The notes below the pieces were generated by a model. The model saw only the letters and a list, made by a program, of their open reading frames with translations. It was not told the DNA's origin and ran no database searches. Position numbers and translations under genes: made by a program. Below, one piece after another: positions 677-46,192 of a DNA stretch of 64,000 bases; the first letter of the stretch is position 1, and the number at the start of each line of letters is the position of its first letter. The DNA is from an uncultured Nitrososphaerota archaeon. GTDB lineage: Archaea > Thermoproteota > Nitrososphaeria > Nitrososphaerales > Gagatemarchaeaceae. The stretch is from assembly GCA_963838925.1 (NCBI GenBank), contig CAWISW010000001.1:320001-384000 (forward strand), given 5' to 3'.

Positions 677-2107
677 ATGGGCGCCAAAGAAGCGTGCGGT
701 GTGTTCGGCGCATACTCGAGCAAGGGGACCGACGTCGTCCCTAAGATACTGAAGGGCCTCGAGGCACTCCAGCACAGGGGGCAGGAGTCCTGGGGGATAG
801 CGGTCAACGGGAAGCCCGTCTTCAAGCGGATGGGCCTGGCATTCAACTGGACGAACTTCGCCCGAGAGCTCAACGGGTACAAGGGGGGCTCGGGAATCGG
901 GCACATCAGGTACTCGACGAAGGGGCGCTCCAACCTGGGCAACGCGCAGCCGATCCAGTTCGGGAGCGAGTTCAGCATCGCCCACAACGGGACCATCGTG
1001 AACACCGAGGACCTCCAGAAGACCGTCCTGGCGTCCCGCTCGGGCGCCGACTGCTCCACCGACACGAAGGTGGTGGGGCACAGGCTCCTCCAGATCCTGA
1101 AGGAGGAGAACGACTGGTTCTGGGCATTCGAGCGCCTCTCCAAGGAGGTAAAGGGCGCGTACACCTTCACGATAATCAACAAGCAGGGAGAGGTCTTCGC
1201 GGCGAGAGATCCGAGGGGCTACAGGCCGCTCTGCATCGGGCTCCACGAGAGGTCGGGGACCTACATCGCAGCCTCCGAGAGCTGCGCCCTCACCGCGGTC
1301 GAGGCGCAGTTCATCCGAGACGTGGCGCCGGGAGAGATGGTGCGCCTGGGCAGCCCCAAGAAGGGGTTCGAGGCCTTCCGGTTTGCGCCCAAGGTCGCGT
1401 CCGCCCACTGCTCCTTCGAGTACACCTACTTCGCCCATCCCGCGTCGGTCATCGACGGCGTGAACGTGTACGAGGCGAGGAAGAACGTGGGCAAGATCCT
1501 CGCCCGACGGAGGAGGATGAAGGGGAAGGTCGTCATCCCGGTGCCGGACTCGGCGCGCCCCGCTGCGCTCGGCTACTCGACGGAGAGCGGCATCCCGATG
1601 GACGAAGGGCTCATGAAGGACAGGTACAGGCGGAAGGGCAGCATGAGGAGCTTCATCGAGCCCAAGCAGGGCGGGCGCGAGGAGGTGGTGAAGAGGATCA
1701 TTCCCATCAAGGAGACCATCCAGCACAAGGACGTGATCGTGGTCGACGACAGCGTCGTGCGCGGCACCAGCTCCGAGATCATCGTAGAAGCCCTCCGCGA
1801 GGCTGGCGCCAAGAGCATCAAGATGGCGATAACCTTCCCGCCCATAATGCACCCGTGCTACATGGGGGTCGACTTCCCCAGCAGGGAGGAGCTCCTCGCG
1901 TACAGGGTGGCGCGCGACGAGACGGACATCGAGGCGATCAGCGCCAAGGTCGCGAAGTCGCTGGGGGTCGACGAGCTGCACTACAACGACATCGACGGGC
2001 TCGCGGAGGCGATAGGCCTCCCGAAGGATAGCCTCTGCTTCGCGTGCATCAACGGGGACTACTCCAAGCTGGGCGCGGTCAAGCCCAAGAAAGAGTTGAA
2101 GGCCTGA
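677..2107 (+). CDS. purF: Amidophosphoribosyltransferase
   Basis: N-terminal CGVFG after short propeptide, LQHRGQES, GHIRYST, PRPP-binding VVDDSVVRGT, C-terminal Cys cluster. Confidence 0.97.
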   Translation: MGAKEACGVFGAYSSKGTDVVPKILKGLEALQHRGQESWGIAVNGKPVFKRMGLAFNWTNFARELNGYKGGSGIGHIRYSTKGRSNLGNAQPIQFGSEFSIAHNGTIVNTEDLQKTVLASRSGADCSTDTKVVGHRLLQILKEENDWFWAFERLSKEVKGAYTFTIINKQGEVFAARDPRGYRPLCIGLHERSGTYIAASESCALTAVEAQFIRDVAPGEMVRLGSPKKGFEAFRFAPKVASAHCSFEYTYFAHPASVIDGVNVYEARKNVGKILARRRRMKGKVVIPVPDSARPAALGYSTESGIPMDEGLMKDRYRRKGSMRSFIEPKQGGREEVVKRIIPIKETIQHKDVIVVDDSVVRGTSSEIIVEALREAGAKSIKMAITFPPIMHPCYMGVDFPSREELLAYRVARDETDIEAISAKVAKSLGVDELHYNDIDGLAEAIGLPKDSLCFACINGDYSKLGAVKPKKELKA

Positions 2108-2113
2108 GCGCCT

Positions 2114-2752
2114 TTGCCCGCCGCCCCGACCTGCAACATAGGAATCCTCGTCTCCGGCAGGGGGAGCAACATGCTCGCCATCATCCGCGCCATAGAGCGC
2201 GGAGGGATCAAGGGCGCGAGGGTGGCCGTCGTGATAAGCGACAAGCGCGACGCGAGGGCACTGAAGTCGGCGCTGAGCCACGGGATCGAAGCCGTCTGGC
2301 TCGACCCGGCCGAGGCGGCCAGCAGGCTAGACTACGACATGAGGCTCCTCGACGTCCTCAGAGACAAGGGAGTGACCACGAAAGGCGGTCTCGTCGCGCT
2401 CGCCGGTTTCATGAGGCTGCTCTCGCCCGAGTTCGTCGACGCGTTCAAGGGCAGGATCATCAACATCCACCCCGCCCTGCTCCCGTCGTTCCCAGGGCTG
2501 AGGGCGCAGGAGCAGGCGCTCGAGTACGGGGTCAAGGTCTCGGGGTGCACCGTGCACTTCGTTGTCCCCGAGGTCGACTCGGGCCCGATAATCCTCCAGG
2601 GCGCGGTGAAGGTGGAGGAGGGGGACTCCCCAGAGTCCCTTTCAGCGAGGATCCTTAGGCAGGAGCACAGGCTCTACCCGCTCGCGGTCAAGCTGTTCGT
2701 CGAAGGAAGGCTAAAAATCGAGGGCCGCAGAGTGGTGATAGCAAGGAAATGA
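2114..2752 (+). CDS. purN: Phosphoribosylglycinamide formyltransferase
   Basis: ILVSGRGSN, LAGFMRLL, INIHPALLPSFPG, GCTVHFV..EVDSGPII; TTG start. Confidence 0.96.
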   Translation: MPAAPTCNIGILVSGRGSNMLAIIRAIERGGIKGARVAVVISDKRDARALKSALSHGIEAVWLDPAEAASRLDYDMRLLDVLRDKGVTTKGGLVALAGFMRLLSPEFVDAFKGRIINIHPALLPSFPGLRAQEQALEYGVKVSGCTVHFVVPEVDSGPIILQGAVKVEEGDSPESLSARILRQEHRLYPLAVKLFVEGRLKIEGRRVVIARK

Positions 2753-3627
2753 CCGCCACCATAATGGACGGCAGGGCACTGGCGGCGGAGATCAAGTCCC
2801 GCCTCGCCCAAGAGGCGGCGATGATGAAGGGCGCGGGGGCCGTCCCGAAGCTGGCGACCATCCTCGTGGGCGACGACGCGCCCTCCAAGGTCTACCTTGG
2901 GGGCAAGCACCGCGCGGCGCAAGAGGTCGGCATAGGCCTCGAGACCTACCACCTCCCGGGGACCTCGCCTCCCCAGGACCTCTCCCTCCTGATACGCAGG
3001 CTCAACTCAGACAAGTCGGTGAACGGGATCCTCCTCCAGCTTCCGCTGCCCGGGCACCTGGAGCCGAGGGAGATGATTGAGCAGATCTCGCCAGCGAAGG
3101 ACGTCGACGGCCTCACGGCCGCCAACATGGGCCGGCTCTTCTACAACCAAGGCATCCTCGTGCCGTGCACGCCCAAGGGGATAATGGAGCTGCTCCACCA
3201 CTACAACGTCCCGCTCACGGGGTCGAGGTGCGTGATCATCAACAGGAGCGCCCTGGTCGGGAGGCCGCTCATGCACCTCCTCCTCGCCGAGGACGCGACC
3301 GTCACCGTGTGCCACTCAAAGTCCGTCGACTTCATCTCGATCACGAGGCAGGCGGACGTCGTGGTCACAGCCGTCGGCAGGCGGCCCGGCTTCACCCTGA
3401 CGAGGGAGATGGTGAAGGAAGGCGCGGTCGTGGTCGACGTCGCGATGAACAGGGTCCACGGGAAGCTCACCGGGGACGCCGAGTTCGAGGAGGTGTCGCA
3501 GAAGGCCTCCATGATAACCCCCGTCCCGGGAGGCGTGGGGCCGATGACCATCGCCATGCTGATGGAGAACACCCTCATCGCCACCGCGCTTCAGAACGGC
3601 CTGAAGGACGCGGGGGTGCTGAAGTGA
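2749..3627 (+). CDS. folD: Methylenetetrahydrofolate dehydrogenase/cyclohydrolase
   Basis: GILLQLPLP, KDVDG, PCTPKG, TVTVCHS, ITPVPGGVGPMT. Confidence 0.97.
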   Translation: MTATIMDGRALAAEIKSRLAQEAAMMKGAGAVPKLATILVGDDAPSKVYLGGKHRAAQEVGIGLETYHLPGTSPPQDLSLLIRRLNSDKSVNGILLQLPLPGHLEPREMIEQISPAKDVDGLTAANMGRLFYNQGILVPCTPKGIMELLHHYNVPLTGSRCVIINRSALVGRPLMHLLLAEDATVTVCHSKSVDFISITRQADVVVTAVGRRPGFTLTREMVKEGAVVVDVAMNRVHGKLTGDAEFEEVSQKASMITPVPGGVGPMTIAMLMENTLIATALQNGLKDAGVLK

Positions 3628-28136: not shown

Positions 28137-29458
28137 GGTTCTGTTAACTCTTCAGCTCAGGCAGTGGGCGAGTCAACTTGCTGGCATCGACTCGGAGGAT
28201 TAGGGTCTTCCTCGTCCCGTTCCCCGTCACTGCTTCACCTGCCAGCCCTTTCTCCTCCTCTATCGTGTGCGAGCGACTTTCCTCCTCTCGCCTCTCCGAC
28301 CGAGGAGAAAGGGAACGGTCGAACCTGGACCGCCCCCTCTCGGATAGGTTCAGGGCCGCGTTCACGTCCCTGTAAATCCACTCCTTGCACTTCTGGCACC
28401 AGAGCATCCTCGCGTGCGCGACATCACCCCTTGCAGGATTGTGGAGCTTCTCCCCACACGCCGAGCACGTCGAGGATGACCCGTAGGTCTCAGACTTTGT
28501 CAGCAGAACCACAGTCAGGCCCTTCCATGCTGCCTTGTATTCGAGCATCTTCTTCGCCTTCCGGTGGGGCCACGAGTTGAGCCTGAACCTGTAGCCTGCA
28601 CCTTGCCCGTTCCCTCTTTGGTACAACCTCCTGATGTCGGTCAGGTCCTCGATAGCAAGCGCAGCCCCTTGCCTCGCCGCGTCATCGACGATATAGTTCG
28701 TGGCCGCGTGGAGGATCTGGTCGCTCCTGTGACGGGCCCTACTCCAGTACTTGCGGGCGAGATTCCTTCGTATCCTGACGTCGTTCCTCTTGAACGATCC
28801 GACTATCTCCCTGGTCGTCTGCCTCATCTTGACCAACTTCGTCATCTCGACCAAGGTGACGTTTTCTTTATCACCGAACGTGATGTTCTTCTCGTTCCTG
28901 TCCAAGCCATAGACTCTTCTTATCTCAACAGGTTCGATGTGCTTCGAATAGCAGAGCGATAGCGAGTCGGGAGTTATGGTGAGGCTCCTGACCTTCCCCT
29001 CTGAGAGCTTCCTGACCGCATATTGATTGAGCTTTATGTCGAAATACTTGTCACGTCTCAGCGGGATGAAGAGCCTCCCCTTCATTGTGATGAAGAAACC
29101 CGAGATGATACATGAAACCGGTCTCAAAGGCCTGGGATGGGCTGCTTTGATTCCTCGCTTCTCGCCTTTGTTGCGACTTTGGACGACTGCGCAGGCGCGC
29201 GTTATCGACGCGACCTTGTAACAAGAAGGAAACTCGGTGTTCCTGAGCGTCCGGTAGAATCCCTTCATCCCCTTGCGGTTCTCAATCCCATGTGCTTCGG
29301 CGTAGTTGACTGCGTCATAGGTCGCTGTTAGACATTCGTTAAGCAGACCACGTAGCTGCTCGCTGGAATGCGATTGGGTGACACACTTTGTTGCCCGCAA
29401 CAATCATCTGGGATGCAATCGTATAAACGCGCCCATGAGCCGAAGAGTTACCAGAGCC
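28137..29458 (-). mobile_element. Non-autonomous tnpB-only element with 23-bp TIRs and 8-bp TSD (copy 1)
   Basis: TIRs 28137-28159 and 29436-29458 (20/23 complementary); direct repeat CCAGTGCA at 28129-28136 and 29459-29466; no transposase inside. Confidence 0.9.
28144..29403 (-). CDS. tnpB: TnpB-family RNA-guided endonuclease
   Basis: RuvC-I VYGLDRN, RuvC-II LAIEDL, zinc ribbon SSTCSACG/WCQKC, RuvC-III RDVNAALNL; stop lies inside TIR. Confidence 0.88.
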   Translation of the reverse strand: MLRATKCVTQSHSSEQLRGLLNECLTATYDAVNYAEAHGIENRKGMKGFYRTLRNTEFPSCYKVASITRACAVVQSRNKGEKRGIKAAHPRPLRPVSCIISGFFITMKGRLFIPLRRDKYFDIKLNQYAVRKLSEGKVRSLTITPDSLSLCYSKHIEPVEIRRVYGLDRNEKNITFGDKENVTLVEMTKLVKMRQTTREIVGSFKRNDVRIRRNLARKYWSRARHRSDQILHAATNYIVDDAARQGAALAIEDLTDIRRLYQRGNGQGAGYRFRLNSWPHRKAKKMLEYKAAWKGLTVVLLTKSETYGSSSTCSACGEKLHNPARGDVAHARMLWCQKCKEWIYRDVNAALNLSERGRSRFDRSLSPRSERREEESRSHTIEEEKGLAGEAVTGNGTRKTLILRVDASKLTRPLPELKS

Positions 29459-29530
29459 CCAGTGCATCAAGCTTTTATATCGAGCCCGGCACTTTGTCGC
29501 CAGGTCGCGCTCGTGGGCTCAGAGTTGGTC

Positions 29531-38193: not shown

Positions 38194-39546
38194 ATGAGCG
38201 CCCCCAAGGAGCGTGCGACATTCCTGACGCAGGACGAGATACCGACCTCATGGTACAACATACAGGCGGACCTCCCGGAGCAGCTCCCGCCGCCGCTCGA
38301 CCCGGGGACGCACAAGCCCATGTCCCCCGAGCCGCTCTTCAGGCTGTTCCCGAAGGAGCTCGTCGGGCAAGAGGTCTCCCAGGAGAGGTGGATCAAGATC
38401 CCCGACGAGGTGCTCGAGGCCTATCGGTGGCTGCCGCGCCCGACGCCCCTCTTCCGCGCGTACAAGCTCGAGAACTTCCTGAAGACTCCGGCGAAGATCT
38501 ACTACAAGTGGGAGGGCGCCAACCCCACGGGGAGCCACAAGCCGAACACGGCGCTCGCCCAGGCCTATTACAACATGAAGGAGGGCACGAAGAGGCTCTC
38601 GACGGAGACGGGCGCCGGTCAGTGGGGCTCCGCGCTCTCCATGGCGGGCGCCTACTTCGGGCTCAAGGTCCGCGTCTTCATGGTGGCCGCGAGCTACAAC
38701 CAAAAGCCCGGCAGGAGGACCATGATGGAGACCTGGGGCGCGGAGTGCGTCTCGTCCCCGAGCAACAAGACCAAGTTCGGCAGGTCCCTCCTCGCGAAGG
38801 ACCCCAAGGATCCGGGGTCGCTTGGCATCGCGATAAGCGAGGCGATTGAAGATGTGCTCGCCGACGACGGCGCGAAGTACAGCCTGGGCTCGGTTTTGAA
38901 CCACGTCCTGCTCCACCAGACCGTCATCGGGCTGGAGCTGAAGAAGCAGCTCGAGATGCTCGACGTCACACCAGACATGGTCGTGGGGAACATCGGCGGG
39001 GGCTCTAACTTCGGAGGCTTCTGCTTGCCTCTGATGGGCGACAAGATCTCCAAGAGGCTGCGAATGGACTTCGTCGCCTGCGAGTCGAGCGCCATCCCGC
39101 ACACCACCAAGGGGAAGTACACCTACGACTTTGGTGACACGGCCGGGATGACGCCGCTCCTGAAGATGTACACGCTTGGGAAGGACTACAAGACCCCGCC
39201 AATCCACGCGGGAGGCCTGAGATACCATGCGATGGCTCCGATAATCTCCTACCTCATCAACAAGGGATACATGCGCTCCGTGGCTTTCACCCAGAAGGAG
39301 GTCTTCGAGGCCGCCGTGACCTTCGCGAGGACGGAGGGCATCATCCCCGCCCCGGAGTCCGCGCACGAGATCAAGTTCGTAATCGACGAGGCGCTAAGGT
39401 GCAAGGAGAAGAGGGAGGCCAAGGTCATCGTCTTCAACAACTCGGGGCATGGGCTGCTCGACCTGAGCGCGTACCAGGCCTACCACGACGGGAAGCTCGA
39501 GGACTGGGCGCCGACGAAGATAGAGTACCCGAGCATGGTCGCGTAG
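38194..39546 (+). CDS. trpB: Tryptophan synthase beta chain, TrpB2 type
   Basis: WYNIQADLP, GSHKPNTA, TETGAGQWG, GGGSNFGG, IHAGGLRYH, PAPESAH. Confidence 0.95.
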   Translation: MSAPKERATFLTQDEIPTSWYNIQADLPEQLPPPLDPGTHKPMSPEPLFRLFPKELVGQEVSQERWIKIPDEVLEAYRWLPRPTPLFRAYKLENFLKTPAKIYYKWEGANPTGSHKPNTALAQAYYNMKEGTKRLSTETGAGQWGSALSMAGAYFGLKVRVFMVAASYNQKPGRRTMMETWGAECVSSPSNKTKFGRSLLAKDPKDPGSLGIAISEAIEDVLADDGAKYSLGSVLNHVLLHQTVIGLELKKQLEMLDVTPDMVVGNIGGGSNFGGFCLPLMGDKISKRLRMDFVACESSAIPHTTKGKYTYDFGDTAGMTPLLKMYTLGKDYKTPPIHAGGLRYHAMAPIISYLINKGYMRSVAFTQKEVFEAAVTFARTEGIIPAPESAHEIKFVIDEALRCKEKREAKVIVFNNSGHGLLDLSAYQAYHDGKLEDWAPTKIEYPSMVA

Positions 39547-39559
39547 TCTGCCAAACGGG

Positions 39560-40895
39560 CGGTGGACCGCCCTCGGCTTCATCCGTGAGGTAGGGCGAAT
39601 GGGCGCTTAAATCGAATTTGCAGTTTTGGGTTTCGGCCCAATTGAAGTCAGCTCTCCGGTTTCGTCTCTATCCGAACAGAAAGCAGGAGTGGAGGCTGAT
39701 AAGGATGGTCGAGGCCGGGCGGCGACTGTGGAACATTGCTCTCTGCCACAGGAGACTGCGATGGGAGCAGAAGCGACTCTCCACCTCTTACAGCCAACAG
39801 TGCTTGATTCTTACTGCAGAGAGGCGCTTAGACCCGTTCTTGAAAGAGCTGTACTCACAAGCGGGTCAAGAGATACTCAAGCGCCTCGACAGGGCATTCC
39901 AGTCGTACTTCGACGGACGGGCAGGATATCCGAAGTTCAAAAAGTTCTCCGAATCGGGGTCGTTCACGTATCCTCAGGCTTACAAAGGATCTGTAAAGCC
40001 AGACATAGTGCGGAGGAGGCTCTTCCTCTCAAAGGTGGGAAATGTCAAGGTGGTTTTCCACAGAGAACTGCCTTCCGGGAGCGCGAGGTTGAAGACCTGC
40101 ACCATTGTTAGGGAACCGAATGGCGAATGGTACGCGTCTCTGGTCTACGAGGTATACAGGGAATGGCCTCAACCGTGTAAGGCGTTTACATCGCCGGTTG
40201 GAGTGGATTTAGGACTGAAATCAGTCATAACCACAACCGATGGAATCAAGATTGCACACCCTCAGTTCCTCAGGAAATCAGAGAGGCGGCTGAAGCATCT
40301 GAATCGAGCGCTTTCCAAAACGCTGAAAGCTTCGAGGAATAGAGAAAGAGCTCGCATAAAACTTGCGATCTGCTCGTCGACCGTCACGAGACAACGGACA
40401 GATTTCAATCAAAAACTGAGCCCATCACTGGTGCGGAAGCACGATTTGATTGCCTTTGAGGACCTGAAGGTCAGGAATATGGTCAGGAACCGCGTTGTTG
40501 CGAAGTCCATTATAGATGCCGGATGGCATCAGATTCGAATCCTTACAGAATACAAGGCAACATGGGCAGGGAAGCTCGTTGTGGGGGTGCCGGCAGCCTA
40601 CTCGAGCCAGGAATGCTTCTTTTGCGGCACGCTAAACCAGGTTCCTCTAAGCGTCCGCGTCTTTGACTGCCGAGGTTGCGGCCGGACGTTGGACCGCGAC
40701 CTAAACGCGGCGTGGATAGTGCTGAAGCGAGGATTCGCTCAGGTAGGGCAGGACATGCCCGAACTCAAGCCTGGGGAGACAGGACCTCTACCCGTCCCGG
40801 CAACGGGACGCGCAAGCCCCGTCGGTGAAGCAGGAACTACACGCGGCGAGCATCGAGCCGCTGGAATCCCAAAACCTCAGGTGGGAAGGATGTCA
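39560..40895 (+). mobile_element. IS200/IS605-family tnpB-only (IS1341-like) element; left boundary approximate
   Basis: Left subterminal hairpin CGCCCTCGGCTTCATCCGTGAGGTAGGGCG; right end GGAATCCC...GGGAAGGATGTCA; lower GC than flanks; no TIR/TSD seen. Confidence 0.75.
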
Positions 40896-41309
40896 CTTTT
40901 TCGACTCGCGCACGTAGTCTTCGAAGATCGCCTTGACCTTGTCGGCGGCGAGGCCGGAGCCCTCGGTCACCCCCTTGTCGGTGACCTTGATCTTCTCCAT
41001 CACGATTATGGCCCCTATGTCCTCCCTCACCGAGACCAGCCCGGGGAACACCCTGTTGAGCCTCTCGCCCAGGGCCTTGAAGTCGAACGGCCTGTCCGTC
41101 AGCCTGATCTCGCGGACGTTGTCGCCGTTCATGGCGACCTTGAAGACGTTGGGCCCCGCCCCGACCACCTTGTCGAGGACGATGTTGAGCCTCTCGTCCG
41201 CCCCCACGAGCTGGCCGTTGTACTCCTTCCCATCGGCCGTAACAACCACGACGTGCCTGCCAAGGAAGGCGTTCAACTCCTCCCCGAACTTTCGAAACAC
41301 AACCGATGA
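39642..41309 (+). CDS. tnpB: Canonical IS605-type TnpB; frame runs past the element end antisense through the Sm gene (meaningful part ends by ~40895)
   Basis: RFRLYPN HTH, GYPKFK, VGVDLGLK, IAFEDL, SSQECFFCG...CRGCG..DRDLNAA. Confidence 0.9.
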   Translation: MKSALRFRLYPNRKQEWRLIRMVEAGRRLWNIALCHRRLRWEQKRLSTSYSQQCLILTAERRLDPFLKELYSQAGQEILKRLDRAFQSYFDGRAGYPKFKKFSESGSFTYPQAYKGSVKPDIVRRRLFLSKVGNVKVVFHRELPSGSARLKTCTIVREPNGEWYASLVYEVYREWPQPCKAFTSPVGVDLGLKSVITTTDGIKIAHPQFLRKSERRLKHLNRALSKTLKASRNRERARIKLAICSSTVTRQRTDFNQKLSPSLVRKHDLIAFEDLKVRNMVRNRVVAKSIIDAGWHQIRILTEYKATWAGKLVVGVPAAYSSQECFFCGTLNQVPLSVRVFDCRGCGRTLDRDLNAAWIVLKRGFAQVGQDMPELKPGETGPLPVPATGRASPVGEAGTTRGEHRAAGIPKPQVGRMSLFRLAHVVFEDRLDLVGGEAGALGHPLVGDLDLLHHDYGPYVLPHRDQPGEHPVEPLAQGLEVERPVRQPDLADVVAVHGDLEDVGPRPDHLVEDDVEPLVRPHELAVVLLPIGRNNHDVPAKEGVQLLPELSKHNR

Positions 41310-41312
41310 CAT
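40893..41312 (-). CDS. Sm-like RNA-binding protein with C-terminal domain (SmAP3 type)
   Basis: Sm fold V.T.DGKEY.G.LVG.D..LNIVL, then FDFKALGERLNRVFPG; ATG 41312. Confidence 0.88.
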   Translation of the reverse strand: MSSVVFRKFGEELNAFLGRHVVVVTADGKEYNGQLVGADERLNIVLDKVVGAGPNVFKVAMNGDNVREIRLTDRPFDFKALGERLNRVFPGLVSVREDIGAIIVMEKIKVTDKGVTEGSGLAADKVKAIFEDYVRESKK

Positions 41313-41421
41313 CCGATTCGATTCCTGAACCTCCCGAGAGGGTATATAGGAATTATTTCGGCCGGCGCTGGTAACTCCTCGGCGCATAGGCGCATATATT
41401 TGAATAACGCGAAAATGATTA

Positions 41422-42696
41422 TTGCGAGCGACAAGGTCCGTCACCCAGTCCCATTCCAGCCAGCAGCTTGCAAGCTTGCTCTCAGAGTGTCTGACGATGA
41501 CTTGCAACGCCATTCACTACGCCCAAGAACACAAGATCAAGAGCCGCAGAGGAATGAAAGGGTTCTACAGGACGCTCAAGGACGTCGAGCTGCCTTTGTG
41601 CTACAAGGTCGGGTCGATATCGCGGGCTTGCGCCGTCGTCAACAGTCGCGAAAAGAGCGAGAGGCGAGGAGTCGCGGTCGGCCACCCCAAACCTCTTCGC
41701 CCGGCCGTTTGCATCACCTCGGGGTTCTTCATCACGATGAAGGGGAGGCTCTTCATCCCGTTGAGGCGTGACAGGTATTTCGACGTCCAGCTCAATCAGT
41801 ACATAATGGACTGGCTCGCCGACAAGAAAGTGAGGAGCCTCACCATTGCTTCCGACTCGCTCTCACTCTGCTACTCGGAGGACATCCGTCCAGCCCCTGT
41901 CAGGAGGGTCTACGGCGTCGACAGGAACGAGAAGAACGTCGCCTTCGGGGACAGAGAGAAGGTCATCCTGGTCGAGATGAAGAAGATTGTCAGGGTCAGG
42001 CAGACGACGAGGGAGATAGTCGCCTCGTTCAAGAGGAACGACGTCAGGATGCGAAGGAAGCTCTTCCGCAAGTACTGGAGGAGGGCGAACCACAGGGGCG
42101 ACCAGATCCTCCACGCGGCCGCGAACTACGTCATCGACGTGGCGGCGAAAGACGGGGCCGCGCTAGCCATCGAGGACCTAAGGGGCATCAGGAAGCTGTA
42201 CCGCAGGGGGAGCGGTCAGGGACCTGACTATAGGTTCAGGCTCAACTCATGGCCGCACTGGAAGGCCAAGAAGATGCTCGAGTACAAGGCCGCTTGGAAG
42301 GGAGTGACGACGATTGCGCTCACGAGGTCTGACACCTATGGATCCTCGTCGACGTGCTCGGCGTGCGGGGAGAGGCTCCGCAGTCCTGCGAAGGATGATG
42401 TCGCGCACCGGAGGATGCTGTGGTGTCAGGCCTGCAGTAGGTGGATAGACAGGGATGTGAACGCGCCCCTGAACCTGTCCATGAGGGGGCGGTCGAGGTT
42501 TGACCGTTCCCTTCCTTCCCGGTCGGAGCGCAATGAGGAGGAGGAAAGGCGCTCGCAACAAGCAACTCCCTCTTCCATCCCGACCGTGAAGGAGGAAGGG
42601 CTGGCAGGTGAAGCGGTGACGGGGAACGGGACGACTACCCTAATCCTCCGAGTCGATGCCAGCAAGTTGACTCGACGGCGTGAGCCGAAGAGTTAA
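41422..42696 (+). CDS. tnpB: TnpB-family RNA-guided endonuclease, paralog of 28144-29403
   Basis: VYGVDRN, LAIEDL, SSTCSACG/WCQAC, DRDVNA; colinear with copy 1 over full length. Confidence 0.88.
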   Translation: MRATRSVTQSHSSQQLASLLSECLTMTCNAIHYAQEHKIKSRRGMKGFYRTLKDVELPLCYKVGSISRACAVVNSREKSERRGVAVGHPKPLRPAVCITSGFFITMKGRLFIPLRRDRYFDVQLNQYIMDWLADKKVRSLTIASDSLSLCYSEDIRPAPVRRVYGVDRNEKNVAFGDREKVILVEMKKIVRVRQTTREIVASFKRNDVRMRRKLFRKYWRRANHRGDQILHAAANYVIDVAAKDGAALAIEDLRGIRKLYRRGSGQGPDYRFRLNSWPHWKAKKMLEYKAAWKGVTTIALTRSDTYGSSSTCSACGERLRSPAKDDVAHRRMLWCQACSRWIDRDVNAPLNLSMRGRSRFDRSLPSRSERNEEEERRSQQATPSSIPTVKEEGLAGEAVTGNGTTTLILRVDASKLTRRREPKS

Positions 42697-42703
42697 CAGA
42701 ACC
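42598..42703 (+). ncRNA. Putative omegaRNA scaffold overlapping tnpB 3' end (equivalent in copy 1 at ~28137-28248, minus strand); 5' end unknown
   Basis: Near-identical between copies; stem CGAGTCGA/TTGACTCG with loop TGCCAGC complementary to upstream GCTGGCA (pseudoknot). Confidence 0.6.
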
Positions 42704-42733
42704 TTTCGGCCCGAAGTGCGAGAGCGGCGAAAG

Positions 42734-44626
42734 GTGGCGCGCTTCCTCGCAAACGTCAATAACGGCCCGTCGTCGGAGGCCCTCGTGAGCGCAAGAAGGC
42801 GCTACCTCGCGTTGCGCTTCGTGGTCACCTTCCTCGCCGCCCTCTCGCTCGTGGACCTCCTCTCGATGCTCGCCGTAGTCGGCTTCCACGCCTACTCGCC
42901 TTCGGCGGTCGCGACGGGGGTCCTGGCGCCCATGACGTTCATCCTGGCGGGAGCGTCGTCGGCCGCGCTGGCCCTTTCGCTCGTCTACGCCCTCCTCGCC
43001 TACCCGGCCTACCGCAACACCACGCTCCTCCTGGCTCTCATCGTGCTTGGGCTCCTCGGGGCCCACCTCTACACCATCAACACGCCCCCGCTGGGCACCA
43101 CGGCCTCGCTGAGCGCGCCGATCGGGCACCCGGCCAACGACAACCTCGTCACCCTGTCTTCGAGCCTCACCGGGACGACCCTCCGCGCCACTGTCGCCGT
43201 CTCGGACGTCTCGGGCAGCGACGCGGTCGGCTCGCTGTCCATCGCCGTGGGGAACACCGTGCTGCCCACCTCGGGATGGACGTTCGCCCCGACCACGGTC
43301 ACCGCCTTGCAGCCTGGGTCGATCGACTCGGGCAACTGGTCCCTGCAGTCCGCCCCCTCAGGGCCCGTCACCCTCACCTACGAGGACCTGAAGTGCTACG
43401 CCACCGACAAGCAGGTCGACGGCTGCATAATGGACGAGGTCTACTACGTCCCCGCCGCGCAGACCCTGCTGGCCGGCGAGAAGTGCGCCCCCTACGCGGA
43501 CAACTGCAACCTGGAGCACCCCTTCCTATCCAAGGCCTTCATCGCTGCGGGGATAGCAATCTTCGGGAACGGGACATTCGGCTGGAGGATCTTCGAGGTG
43601 CTGCTGGGCACGTTCAGCGTCCCGGTCCTCTTCGGCATCTGCTGGTCGGTGACCCGCAACCAGAGGCTCTCCCTCTACGCCTCCTTCCTCCTCGCCTTCG
43701 AGACGCTCTTCTTCGCCCACTCCAGCATGGCGGTGATAGACGTCTCCGCCATCTTCTTCGGGCTCCTCGGCTTCCTGTTCTACTTCGCCAAGGTTCGCTG
43801 GTGGAAGTTCGATTCCATCGCCCTCACGGCCATCGCGTTCGGCCTCTCGGCACTCTGTAAGGAGACCGCGATCATGCTCCTCTTCGTCCTCCTCGCCTAC
43901 CACCTCCTCTTCGGAGACGGGAGCAGGACGCGCCGGGTCCTCTCGTCCGTCGAGCTCGTCCTGTCCGTCTTCCTGGTCTTCGCCGTGGGCCTCCAGATCT
44001 ACGACAGCCTCTTCGGGGCGGGTTCGGCGACCACGTTCCTGGGGCAGGTGGAGTTCATCCTGAAGTACGGGGCCTCGCTCACGATGACCCCGACCAGCCA
44101 GGGCTGGATCGACACGGTCCTGAAGACCCCCATCACGCCATGGAACTGGATAACATACTACTCCCCGGTCGGATACCTGATCACCAACGTGAAGGTCACC
44201 ACGGGGACGTCGTCCTACTCGTACGTCTCGGCCGGCTACTACGGCATCACCGACCAGTTCGAGGTCTGGATGGTCTACCTCTGGGGTGCCTACGCCGTCT
44301 ACCTCTGGTGGAAGACCAGGGGGACGCAGTTCGCCACCGAGTCGGACGCGAAGGACTTCAAGGTTGTGCGCCTCGCGCTCGTCTGGTTCCTCGTCATCTT
44401 CCTCGCGTACCTCGCCCTCTTCTACTACGGGCGCATCACGTACCCATACTACTTCATCCAAGCCGTCCCGGCGCTCGCCGTGGGCGCCGCCTACTTCCTT
44501 ACGAGGGGCTGGTTCCCGAAGCAGATAGCCTACATCGTCCTCGCCGGAGTCCTCCTCTGGTTCTTCATCTTCTACCCCGACAAGAGCTTCCTCCCGACGC
44601 AGCTCAGGGTCTGGCTGGGGCACTGA
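42734..44626 (+). CDS. GT-C (GT39/PMT-like) membrane glycosyltransferase with extra extracellular beta domain
   Basis: MDEVYYVPAA, NLEHPFLSK.FIA.GI, FGWR, many TMs; GTG start inferred. Confidence 0.85.
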   Translation: MARFLANVNNGPSSEALVSARRRYLALRFVVTFLAALSLVDLLSMLAVVGFHAYSPSAVATGVLAPMTFILAGASSAALALSLVYALLAYPAYRNTTLLLALIVLGLLGAHLYTINTPPLGTTASLSAPIGHPANDNLVTLSSSLTGTTLRATVAVSDVSGSDAVGSLSIAVGNTVLPTSGWTFAPTTVTALQPGSIDSGNWSLQSAPSGPVTLTYEDLKCYATDKQVDGCIMDEVYYVPAAQTLLAGEKCAPYADNCNLEHPFLSKAFIAAGIAIFGNGTFGWRIFEVLLGTFSVPVLFGICWSVTRNQRLSLYASFLLAFETLFFAHSSMAVIDVSAIFFGLLGFLFYFAKVRWWKFDSIALTAIAFGLSALCKETAIMLLFVLLAYHLLFGDGSRTRRVLSSVELVLSVFLVFAVGLQIYDSLFGAGSATTFLGQVEFILKYGASLTMTPTSQGWIDTVLKTPITPWNWITYYSPVGYLITNVKVTTGTSSYSYVSAGYYGITDQFEVWMVYLWGAYAVYLWWKTRGTQFATESDAKDFKVVRLALVWFLVIFLAYLALFYYGRITYPYYFIQAVPALAVGAAYFLTRGWFPKQIAYIVLAGVLLWFFIFYPDKSFLPTQLRVWLGH

Positions 44627-44644
44627 TCCCGGGGAGAGCCCTGC

Positions 44645-46192
44645 GTGAACGCGCTAGAGCGACACCCGGCGCTGCGCTTCGTCGTCGCCTTCCTCGCAGC
44701 GGTCTCGTTCGTGGACCTCTTCGCGATGCTCGTCATCGTGGGACTGCACGCCTACTTCCCGGCCGGCGTGGCGACGGGCGAGCTCTCCCCCATGACCTTC
44801 GTCCTCGCGGGAGCCTCAGGGTCAGCGCTCGTCCTCTCGCTGGCCTACGCCCTCCTCGCCTACCCTTCCCGTCGCAGGACCCTCCTCCTCCTGTCCCTCC
44901 TCGTCTTGGGGCTCCTCGGCGCGCACCTCTACACCATCAACACGCCGGACACGGCGAACTGCAATGACACCGCAAAGAACGTCCAGGGCTGCGTCATGGA
45001 CGAGGTCTACTACGTCCCCGCCGCCCAGACCATGCTCAGCGGCGAGAAGTGCGCCCCCTTCCAGGTGAACTGCAACCTCGAGCACCCGTTCCTCTCCAAG
45101 GCCTTCATCGCTGCGGGGATAGCGGTCTTCGGGAACGGGACCTTCGGCTGGAGGATCTTCAACGTCATCCTCGGCACCTTCAGCATCCCCGTGCTCTTCG
45201 GGCTGTGCTGGACCGTGACCAAGAACGAGCGCCTCTCGCTTTACGCGGCCTTCCTCCTCGCCTTCGAGACCCTCTTCTTCGTCCACTCGAGCATCGCCGT
45301 CATCGATGTCGGGGCGATATTCTTCAGCCTGCTGGGATTCCTCTTCTACTTCGCAAAGGCGCGCTTATGGAAGCTCAGCCACGTCTCGCTCGCCGGGATC
45401 GCCTTCGGGGTGGCGGTCCTCTGCAAGGAGACGGCGGCTCTCCTGTTCATCATGCTGATCTACTACCACCTCTTCTACGCTGAGGGCAACCGCGGCGCGG
45501 TGGCGCGTTCGACGGCCGTGCTCTGCGCGTGGACCTTCCTCGTATTCGCTGTGGGCATGCAGATCTACGACGGCGCCTTCGGCGCCGGGACGGCGACCAC
45601 CTTCATAGGCCAGACCTACTTCATCTTGGGGTACGGGGCCTCTTTCGTGATGACCCCGACGAACCGAGGGTGGCTCGACTCGGTCTTCAACACCCCCATA
45701 ACGCCACTGAACTGGGTGACCTACTACTCGCCAGTGGTATACCTCGTCACCACCGTCAAGGTGACCGCGGCCTCTGGGAACTATTCCTACGCCTCCGCCG
45801 GATACTACGGAGTCACCAGCCAGATTGAGGTCTGGCTGGTCTACCTTTGGGGCGCCTACACCGTCTACCTCTGGTGGAAGACCAAGGGCAAGACGTTCGC
45901 CTTGGAGTCCGAAGCGCGCGAGTTTCGCCTCGGGCGCCTGGCGCTGGTCTGGTTCCTCGTCGTGTTTCTAGGCTACGTCGCCCTCTACTTCTACGGGAGA
46001 GTGACCTATCCCTACTACCTCATCGAGGCCGCCCCCGCGCTGGCGATGGGCGCCGCGTACTTGCTCACCCGGGGCTGGTTCCCGCGGCCGGTGGCCTATC
46101 TCCTCCTCGCGGGGGTCTTCATCTGGTTCTTCGTCTTCTACCCTGACAAGAGCTTCCTCCCGACGCAGCTCAGGGTCTGGCTGGGCCACTGA
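44645..46192 (+). CDS. GT-C (GT39/PMT-like) membrane glycosyltransferase, tandem paralog
   Basis: Same DE and EHP motifs; colinear with upstream gene; identical C-terminus YPDKSFLPTQLRVWLGH. Confidence 0.87.
   Translation: MNALERHPALRFVVAFLAAVSFVDLFAMLVIVGLHAYFPAGVATGELSPMTFVLAGASGSALVLSLAYALLAYPSRRRTLLLLSLLVLGLLGAHLYTINTPDTANCNDTAKNVQGCVMDEVYYVPAAQTMLSGEKCAPFQVNCNLEHPFLSKAFIAAGIAVFGNGTFGWRIFNVILGTFSIPVLFGLCWTVTKNERLSLYAAFLLAFETLFFVHSSIAVIDVGAIFFSLLGFLFYFAKARLWKLSHVSLAGIAFGVAVLCKETAALLFIMLIYYHLFYAEGNRGAVARSTAVLCAWTFLVFAVGMQIYDGAFGAGTATTFIGQTYFILGYGASFVMTPTNRGWLDSVFNTPITPLNWVTYYSPVVYLVTTVKVTAASGNYSYASAGYYGVTSQIEVWLVYLWGAYTVYLWWKTKGKTFALESEAREFRLGRLALVWFLVVFLGYVALYFYGRVTYPYYLIEAAPALAMGAAYLLTRGWFPRPVAYLLLAGVFIWFFVFYPDKSFLPTQLRVWLGH

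Follow-up and report, generated by a model that had tools for sequence, protein, structure and literature searches.

A TnpB-like gene on non-autonomous elements with IS6-type ends in a Nitrososphaerota archaeon, and a putative omegaRNA scaffold that includes the right inverted repeat

The window analysed here is a stretch of 64,000 nucleotides (contig CAWISW010000001.1, positions 320,001 to 384,000, GenBank assembly GCA_963838925.1) from an uncultured archaeon of the Nitrososphaerota. It contains two copies of a mobile element whose only gene encodes a TnpB-like nuclease, and the region of interest is the 3' end of this gene in the second copy (copy 2, Table 1). From sequence comparison we consider it probable that positions 42485–42703 encode the scaffold of a TnpB omegaRNA which reaches the tip of a non-autonomous transposon with IS6-type ends, and that the guide would be taken from the flanking DNA from position 42704 onwards. 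The original prediction, made from the letters of the window, had marked 42598–42730 as an omegaRNA-like pseudoknot fused to a terminal inverted repeat. This interval does straddle the right end of the element, but its last 27 nt are host DNA, since the element ends at 42703.

The boundaries of the element were defined by comparison of three copies, two in the window and a third elsewhere in the source genome. Overall identity between them is 77–82%, and in the three-copy alignment similarity drops off sharply at both boundaries. All three have terminal inverted repeats of about 23 bp (left GGYKCTGKTAACTCYTCGGCKCA, right TGAGCYGAAGAGTTARCRGAACC), with one repeat pattern fitting all six ends, and all are bordered by perfect 8-bp direct repeats that differ from copy to copy: TTTCGGCC for copy 2, TGCACTGG for copy 1 (28129-36 and 29459-66) and CCTTCTTA for the third copy. 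The inverted repeats and duplications that had been read from the two window copies are real. A search of the genome for the same repeat returned only the six ends of the three copies and one site with two mismatches, which is an IS6 end. The locus orthologous to copy 2 is empty in four genomes of the same genus, in which the related octamer region is present once (...GGGTATATAGGAATTATTTCG...), identifying copy 2 as a true insertion with a target-site duplication. Across 27 mapped insertions of the family, the 8-bp duplication was perfect in 19 and contained one mismatch in eight.

The ends of the element are of the IS6 type. The consensus of IS6 repeats begins with GG and contains CTGTT; the TnpB element has the GG start, the CTGTT and the 8-bp duplication, as have four IS6 elements resident in the source genome and a further one at locus L138 in another genome that bears the family. 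The source genome encodes four DDE_Tnp_IS240 (IS6-family) transposases, each within an element of 2.0–2.8 kb that has perfect 8-bp duplications and repeats opening with GGTTCTGTT(C/A)A..., or in one case with GATTCTGTTAAC. The left-repeat tip of the TnpB element fits the GGYTCTG pattern of these resident elements, with 9–12 tip nucleotides in common. A nearly identical repeat, GGTTCTGTTAACTCT(C/T)CG..., belongs to the 4626-bp IS6 element of the other genome (L138:5537-10162, duplication CGACAGCG), which agrees with the right repeat in the window throughout the first 15 nt and in 17 of 18 positions overall. The transposase open reading frame (ORF) of that element (L138:8917-10152) finishes in AAG AGT TAA inside the repeat, as does tnpB. 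IS6 transposases were present in all five further family-bearing genomes tested, compared with 5 of 14 control genomes. Mobilisation of the TnpB element in trans by IS6 transposases is likely, judging from the common tips, the duplication length and this co-occurrence. Motif scans in other genomes yielded one clean IS6 element, that of L138, and one repeat pair without duplication (L131). An ISL3 transposase was considered as mobiliser on account of the 8-bp duplications and GGCTCT ends, and was rejected because the genome, which is 87% complete, contained no match to PF01610. In three of the resident IS6 elements an additional ORF of 292–334 aa, with no or a weak (Proteasome) Pfam match, lies upstream, and in the L138 element a passenger ORF of 805 aa is encoded on the opposite strand (L138:5916-8330).

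Within the repeats of the TnpB element, tnpB is the sole long ORF, and no DDE transposase (DDE_Tnp_IS240) is encoded. Containing only tnpB and its RNA, the element is therefore at most a passenger or a non-autonomous derivative of IS6 and not a member of that family. The predicted protein of 424 aa matched PF07282 (Cas12f1-like TNB domain/zinc finger) with an E value of 1.7e-13 and had no match to PF01385 or PF12323. A RuvC-like D-E-D triad, formed by D167 (GVDRN), E251 (IED) and D345 (DRD), is invariant in an alignment of 25 homologues. An AlphaFold (AF2) model made from these homologues had a mean predicted local distance difference test (pLDDT) score of 67.5, and a Foldseek search with it gave as best matches Cas12f, ISDra2 TnpB and ISFba1 TnpB, in ternary complexes and over about 400 columns (E 1e-12 to 1e-9, TM 0.4–0.47). 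Similarity to the solved TnpB and Cas12f proteins is remote at the level of sequence (E 1e-3), and judged by its sequence the protein is a divergent TnpB lineage. Its C-terminus (residues 366–424, the last ~60) is predicted to be disordered. A protein index search identified 352 proteins with E values up to 0.001 among the best 8000 candidates by common words, and those with a named source were all from Thaumarchaeota, Nitrososphaerota or Nitrososphaerales. At one locus (L040, match 1501-3342) the tnpB match extends over 1842 nt, compared with the usual ~1250, and the gene there may be interrupted by an insertion.

As originally noticed, the last ~105 nt are far more conserved than the coding region: over the last 106 nt (42598–42703) the three genomic copies are 94.3, 95.3 and 90.6% identical, compared with 76.8–82.6% for the ORF upstream of 42485. 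In the flank beyond 42703 identity among the copies is 35–44%, so that conservation stops at the repeat tip. A second conserved island is found at 42485–42511 (93–96% identity), and an indel-rich stretch lies between it and the last 106 nt. For a wider comparison, related loci were gathered from genomes (28, from 82 pattern matches) and metagenomes (68, from 179), counting confirmed matches only. A 19-nt anchor from the conserved region was present in 85 of 99 sources, and ten of the 85 were removed, being truncated, exact duplicates of others or lacking an end motif with at most one mismatch. The resulting 75 distinct 3' ends, all from Nitrososphaerota, finish in ...ACAGAACC or a variant with one mismatch; 46 have a short tail and 29 a tail that is about 25 nt longer.

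For the upstream part of these 75 sequences RNAalifold predicted four covarying helices, namely helix A, helix B, a long-range helix and hairpin C. Together, standard pairs make up 97.4% of 1854 cells in these helices, and both sides have changed at 12 of the 25 pairs. None of 500 shuffled alignments reached any of five measures, and when the partners were slid by 1–3 columns only 29–49% of cells remained paired. The long-range helix is paired in 98.5% of cells, with changes on both sides at four of its seven pairs (for example GC:67 CG:8; CG:62 GC:8; UA:62 AU:5 GU:3). In a divergent TnpB subfamily CCACCCA/TGGGTGG replaces GCTGGCA/TGCCAGC, all seven pairs being swapped. The complementarity of these two motifs, which had been reported for copies 1 and 2, holds, and the covariation check proposed for it found compensatory changes across the 75 homologous 3' ends; TGCCAGC itself (42657–42663) is, contrary to the earlier count, not wholly inside the loop of the local stem that was thought to enclose it. 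Covariation is likewise apparent in the core of helix A (42491-94/42502-05, extendable to 42485-94/42502-11; UA:50 GC:21, GC:51 UG:15 CG:5 and GC:35 UA:18), in the closing pairs of helix B, which are 95.1% paired and include one position with CG:25 UA:21 UG:11, and in hairpin C (GGG 42628-30/CCC 42638-40, GC:51 CG:22). Several of the compensations involve different amino acids. In eight sequences the Ser codon AGC in VDASKL is changed to TCG together with an upstream change of Leu-Ala to Glu-Ala, in 22 sequences Gly is replaced by Pro (GGG to CCG) together with a replacement of Leu by Val (CCC-T to CGG-T), and helix A alternates between the codons for RSRFDR and LARFAS. Such compensations cut across the reading frame and argue for selection on the RNA fold and not on the peptide, consistent with the predicted disorder of the C-terminal tail.

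The fold continues into the right inverted repeat. A terminal hairpin (hairpin E), whose 3' arm lies within the repeat, was predicted by RNAfold in essentially all 75 tails with a median z of -3.2, and it is kept even though the sequences of the subfamilies differ completely and the long-tail class has a larger insert. Its outer helix has 91.0% of cells paired over 74 sequences, and most positions show three to four pair types. In a formal count the outer helix was 93.2% paired and 8 of the 12 pairs of the outer and inner helices had changed on both sides; four of the five measures were reached by none of 500 shuffles, and the count of pairs changed on both sides was reached by six. The proposed fusion of the RNA to the inverted repeat is supported. 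Taken together, an RNA scaffold of about 220 nt (42485–42703), overlapping the last ~70 codons of tnpB, is well supported by the comparative data. The designation omegaRNA-like is supported by a covarying multi-helix structure that overlaps the 3' end of tnpB and reaches the element end exactly, next to a gene whose product has a predicted TnpB/Cas12f fold and an intact D-E-D triad.

The pseudoknot as it was originally drawn was not supported by this comparison. It depended on a local stem, CGAGTCGA/TTGACTCG, which is present in the sequence of both window copies and finds no support as a conserved helix. Over 74 sequences (L110, with a 1-nt deletion, was left out) 78.5% of its cells are paired, the 5' arm is nearly invariant, occurring in only nine different versions, and where the 3' arm has changed there is no compensation. 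For the 46 short-tail sequences pairing was 82.9%, compared with 80.8% after shuffling, and the covariation counts were matched by 278–295 of 500 shuffles. The 3' arm is better paired in hairpin E, where it covaries with the inverted repeat. The local stem and hairpin E exclude each other, and when hairpin E is formed the long-range helix is nested and not knotted. An H-type pseudoknot could still be the working fold, or one of two folds between which the RNA alternates, hairpin E being the other; pseudoknots are known in TnpB and Cas12f RNAs, the stem can be formed in most sequences (44 of 74 have seven or eight of its eight pairs) and its outermost pair varies between CG:18 and AU:6. Given the shuffle result, the uncompensated changes and the failure of the divergent sequences L102, L104 and L070 to form the stem at all, we regard such a fold as improbable.

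A different tertiary contact is conceivable for the repeat tip. The loop of helix A (AGGTTC; GGTT[C/T]) is complementary to GAACC of the tip in 97.8% of cells, with nearly invariant columns, and the loop is retained in a subfamily that reads it in another frame (Gln-Val-Arg instead of Arg-Phe). Besides two sequences with compensation (L081, L156) there were several with G-U pairs and one that was contrary (L030), and the covariation count was matched by 57 of 500 shuffles. Pairing between the helix A loop and the tip is thus a possible alternative pseudoknot, offered as an idea.

A covariance model with 22 pairs, built from the last 112 positions, identified seven sites in the source genome (E 1e-26 to 1e-6). 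These comprise the three copies already described, three sites at the 3' ends of TNB-domain ORFs that are more divergent, and one site without a recognisable tnpB. Six of the seven sites are hence at the 3' ends of TNB-domain ORFs, which ties the RNA motif to such genes. Neither inverted repeats nor a duplication were found for the four further matches using the script applied to the other copies. The match without a recognisable tnpB (C2:601711-601794) may be a remnant or a solo RNA.

The insertion sites share a feature upstream of the element. In all 27 mapped insertions, that is, at 25 further loci (for example L022, L069 and L076) besides the window copies, a TATA-like box, T-W-T-W-T-A-A-G, is located at -21 to -14 from the left end, in constant orientation and 5–6 nt before the insertion. 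At least five of the six bases from -20 to -15 are A or T in 27/27 insertions, compared with 2.4% of genomic hexamers, and no TATA-like signal was seen at the mirror position of the right flank in these insertions. The empty sites of four relatives also have the box, which therefore belongs to the host. Downstream of both window copies is a host gene in the same orientation, and the same spacing of the box is found in two of the four resident IS6 elements. Insertion close to a TATA box may be due to the transposase choosing such targets, or read-through from the host promoter may have been selected for. With the insertion always just behind the box, the putative guide would always be a promoter-proximal leader.

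The original prediction had left two positions for the guide, one starting at the target-site duplication, with the inverted repeat as part of the scaffold, and one in which the guide reads into the repeat from a scaffold that ends after the local stem. The inner half of the right repeat is a covarying arm of hairpin E whose pairing partner is outside the repeat, no hairpin matching hairpin E was seen by eye at the left end, and conservation ends at the tip; these observations place the repeat inside the scaffold. On this analysis, and by analogy with known TnpBs, in which the RNA includes about 16 nt of the 3' flank, a guide beginning with the duplication at 42704 is favoured. If the scaffold stopped short of the repeat and the guide were instead the repeat itself, or AGAACC together with the flank, the nuclease would recognise IS6-type ends. 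The repeat tip is common to the resident IS6 elements and would offer several targets, and the predicted folds leave the final 6 nt free. However, compensatory changes keep the inner 17 nt of the repeat paired as an arm, which would be unexpected for a guide, and the hairpin is preserved across subfamilies in which this inner part is very different. Moreover, both ends of the element have the same sequence and upstream context (the ~23-nt repeat), so that a target-adjacent motif (TAM) could not prevent self-cleavage. A guide read from the repeat therefore seems very improbable to us.

Several points weigh against the overall interpretation of an omegaRNA scaffold with a flank-derived guide on an element moved by an IS6 transposase. 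No conserved TAM was found directly before the duplication in 27 insertions, the five preceding bases being different, so that a guide from the flank would often be without a fixed TAM; a weak preference for T, T and A at -3 to -1 was seen in 17, 16 and 13 of the 27. To current knowledge, transposition of the IS6 family is replicative and without excision, and the role of restoring an emptied donor, as for IS605 TnpB, is not obviously applicable. None of the resident IS6 elements exceeds the 9–12 tip nucleotides of identity with the repeat of the TnpB element, and strict repeat-and-duplication scripts applied to five other genomes (11 windows and nine larger ones) could define no IS6 ends. The protein scored 69 bits with the NCBIfam model guided_TnpB (NF040570), below the curated cut-off of 100, and a scan of 39000–43500 against Rfam with E up to 1 matched no family. 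As to the covariation, few events may account for all eight sequences that have the AGC-to-TCG triple change, and the covariance model draws alignments produced with it towards its own structure, for which reason they were counted as additional support only. The TATA-like box was considered as a TAM and rejected, because 5–6 nt separate it from the duplication and the bases in between are unlike the repeat tip.

Another view is that the RNA is real and structured and has no guide from the flank, regulating the tnpB mRNA in cis or directing its processing, acting in another role as a partner of TnpB (for instance in binding the ends or controlling transposition), or accompanying a nuclease that is no longer homing. 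The lack of a conserved TAM next to the duplication would be expected on this view, IS6-type transposition is not known to leave an empty donor, and the position of the element, always between a host TATA box and a downstream gene, means that read-through RNA may serve expression and not targeting. On the other hand, the catalytic triad is invariant in the 25 homologues, and the position and size of the RNA and its reach to the element end match known omegaRNAs. TnpB genes linked to DDE transposons, too, end within 250 bp of the transposon end in the branches described by Altae-Tran et al. (2023; PMC10691335). We consider an RNA without a guide unlikely and retain the scaffold with a guide starting at the duplication as the preferred reading.

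Under the preferred reading, an IS6-family DDE transposase acting in trans would move the element and make the 8-bp duplications. The right inverted repeat would have a dual role, as DNA being the end recognised by the transposase and as RNA providing, with its inner half, the 3' arm of the last hairpin, while the 6-nt tip would link the scaffold to the guide. Transcription running out of the element would make the duplication and the following host sequence the guide (TTTCGGCCCGAAGTGC... for copy 2), and the RNA would be bound by TnpB in a complex that recognises alleles without the element. If the nuclease is used for homing at all, it would serve copying into empty alleles and not repair of an emptied donor.

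More broadly, we suggest, tentatively and with more doubt than confidence, that a Nitrososphaerota TnpB lineage shifted from carriers of the IS605 type to IS6-type ends. In this scenario the right repeat would have joined the fold of the guide RNA, its tip possibly pairing with the loop of helix A; insertion in one orientation between TATA box and gene start would bring tnpB, the RNA and the host gene under read-through from the host promoter; and there would be no fixed TAM set by a transposase. TnpB could then have a relaxed TAM, or could promote copying of the element into empty promoters of sister chromosomes or of incoming DNA. In well-studied TnpB systems the insertion motif fixed by the transposase is the TAM of the nuclease, on which the logic of cutting the emptied site is based. 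If the guide starts at the duplication, it has to be asked how TnpB picks its targets without a TAM dictated by a transposase, and what benefit the nuclease brings to a replicative transposon. In addition, a single stretch would act as DNA repeat, RNA hairpin and coding sequence, with overlapping constraints, and orientation-specific insertion behind TATA boxes, if mechanistic, would mean that a prokaryotic transposon chooses its targets in an unusual way. Being compact (~420 aa, ~220-nt RNA) and diverse, the family may interest those who mine genomes for small RNA-guided nucleases.

Table 1. Coordinates of the element copies, their parts and related features. Positions are those of the 64,000-nt window; those prefixed G000 are in the source genome.
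Feature	Position	Strand	Remarks
Element copy 2	41364..42703	+	1340 bp; non-autonomous, IS6-type ends; tnpB-like nuclease gene is the only gene
Element copy 1	28137..29458	-	1322 bp; RNA-model match at 28137-28254
Element copy 3	G000:C2:422318-423654		Elsewhere in the source genome
tnpB-like ORF, 424 aa	41422..42696	+	Start uncertain (TTG at 41422); stop TAA 42694-42696 inside right repeat
Left target-site duplication, copy 2	41356..41363	.	8 bp, TTTCGGCC; identical to 42704-42711
Right target-site duplication, copy 2	42704..42711	.	8 bp, TTTCGGCC; first 8 nt of the putative guide under the favoured model
Left inverted repeat, copy 2	41364..41386	+	GGCGCTGGTAACTCCTCGGCGCA; 18/24 positions match the reverse complement of 42681-42703
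Right inverted repeat, copy 2	42681..42703	+	TGAGCCGAAGAGTTAACAGAACC; includes last tnpB codons AAG AGT TAA, 3' arm of hairpin E and free tip AGAACC
Helix A	42485..42511	+	GGGGGCGGTC / GACCGTTCCC, loop GAGGTTT; probable 5' portion of the scaffold
Variable insert closed by helix B	42513..42593	+	TCCT 42513-16 / AGGA 42590-93; length differs from copy to copy through indels
Long-range helix	42600..42663	+	GCTGGCA 42600-06 / TGCCAGC 42657-63; encloses hairpin C
Local stem of the original prediction	42649..42674	+	CGAGTCGA (42649-56) / TTGACTCG (42667-74); in the sequence, not supported as a conserved helix
Terminal hairpin E	42666..42697	+	Outer GTTGACTC (42666-73) / GAGTTAAC (42690-97), inner CGGC / GCCG, loop GTGA; 3' arm within right inverted repeat
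Repeat tip AGAACC	42698..42703	+	Predicted unpaired; between hairpin E and flank; free in 70/75 RNAfold folds
Putative guide segment	42704..42723	+	Duplication and host 5' leader; length assumed from other TnpBs
Host TATA-like box, copy 2	41343..41350	+	TATATAGG; at -21 to -14 relative to the left end
Host TATA-like box, copy 1	29472-29479	-	Same relative position
Further RNA-model matches	G000:C2:546728-546840, C1:190580-190694, C1:60472-60586, C2:601711-601794		
Resident IS6 elements (loci L046-L049)	G000:C2:410327-413132, C2:509147-511129, C3:179310-181693, C3:395264-398037		

The surroundings of copy 2 contain several other genes. A second, unrelated and canonical TnpB gene (OrfB_IS605, HTH_OrfB_IS605 and TNB domains; 39618-40890, plus strand) is located 470 nt upstream; its ORF as listed continues to 41309 across a gene on the opposite strand, and the true stop is probably earlier. 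This opposite-strand gene (40893-41513, minus strand) encodes an Lsm-domain protein with an Lsm C-terminal domain and adjoins the insertion, and as its listed ORF enters the element the true start is further in. Two adjacent paralogous genes for membrane glycosyltransferases (PMT_2/PMT; 42680-46192, plus strand) follow, the first beginning just after the element. These paralogues are 74–82% identical at the DNA level in three 300-nt blocks.

Among the known systems that come close, the element would work like the TnpB-omegaRNA system of IS200/IS605 elements such as ISDra2, which has in common with the present element a compact nuclease with RuvC triad, zinc-finger (TNB) domain and the same fold, and a structured RNA that overlaps the 3' end of the ORF and runs to the right end of the element. 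The RNA of ISDra2 takes a guide of ~16 nt from the 3' flank, and IS200/IS605 elements are described as having subterminal hairpins, a Y1 TnpA and neither inverted repeats nor duplications, and as inserting beside a fixed motif that doubles as the TAM (reviewed in PMC13565253). In contrast, the element described here has 23-bp repeats, 8-bp duplications, no TnpA and no fixed motif at the insertion point, and the presence of repeats and duplications in all three copies, and across the 27 insertions overall, sets it apart from the IS200/IS605 (IS1341) group.

TnpB genes inside DDE transposons with symmetrical inverted terminal repeats have been reported by Altae-Tran et al. (2023, PNAS; PMC10691335), including solo TnpBs flanked by the same ends as transposase-carrying relatives, with IS630 named, and a 2026 review (PMC13565253) adds 'ISL2' and IS1031 to the TnpB-associated families. 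These branches, six in number, resemble the present element in the inverted-repeat transposon, the solo TnpB and a 3' end within 250 bp of the transposon end. They differ in that the passages describing them in PMC10691335 contain no repeat fused to a covarying hairpin and no TATA-proximal insertion. IS6 is not mentioned in the main text of that paper, whose supplements may include this lineage, and a full-text literature search, which covered papers without the supplements of PMC10691335, returned no paper linking TnpB with IS6-type ends. Fanzor is likewise an RNA-guided nuclease found in DDE-type transposons with inverted repeats and duplications. It is eukaryotic or viral, its duplications are short and sequence-specific (TA, TTAA), and Fanzor structures ranked well below Cas12f and TnpB in the Foldseek search. 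According to the same review (PMC13565253) the 5' duplication of Fanzor is read as part of the TAM, whereas the duplication of the present element is variable and hence cannot serve as such. With the IS6 (IS26) family, finally, the element shares repeats with GG and CTGTT, the 8-bp duplication and an ORF ending inside the right repeat, and it differs from that family in carrying tnpB and its RNA in place of a transposase.

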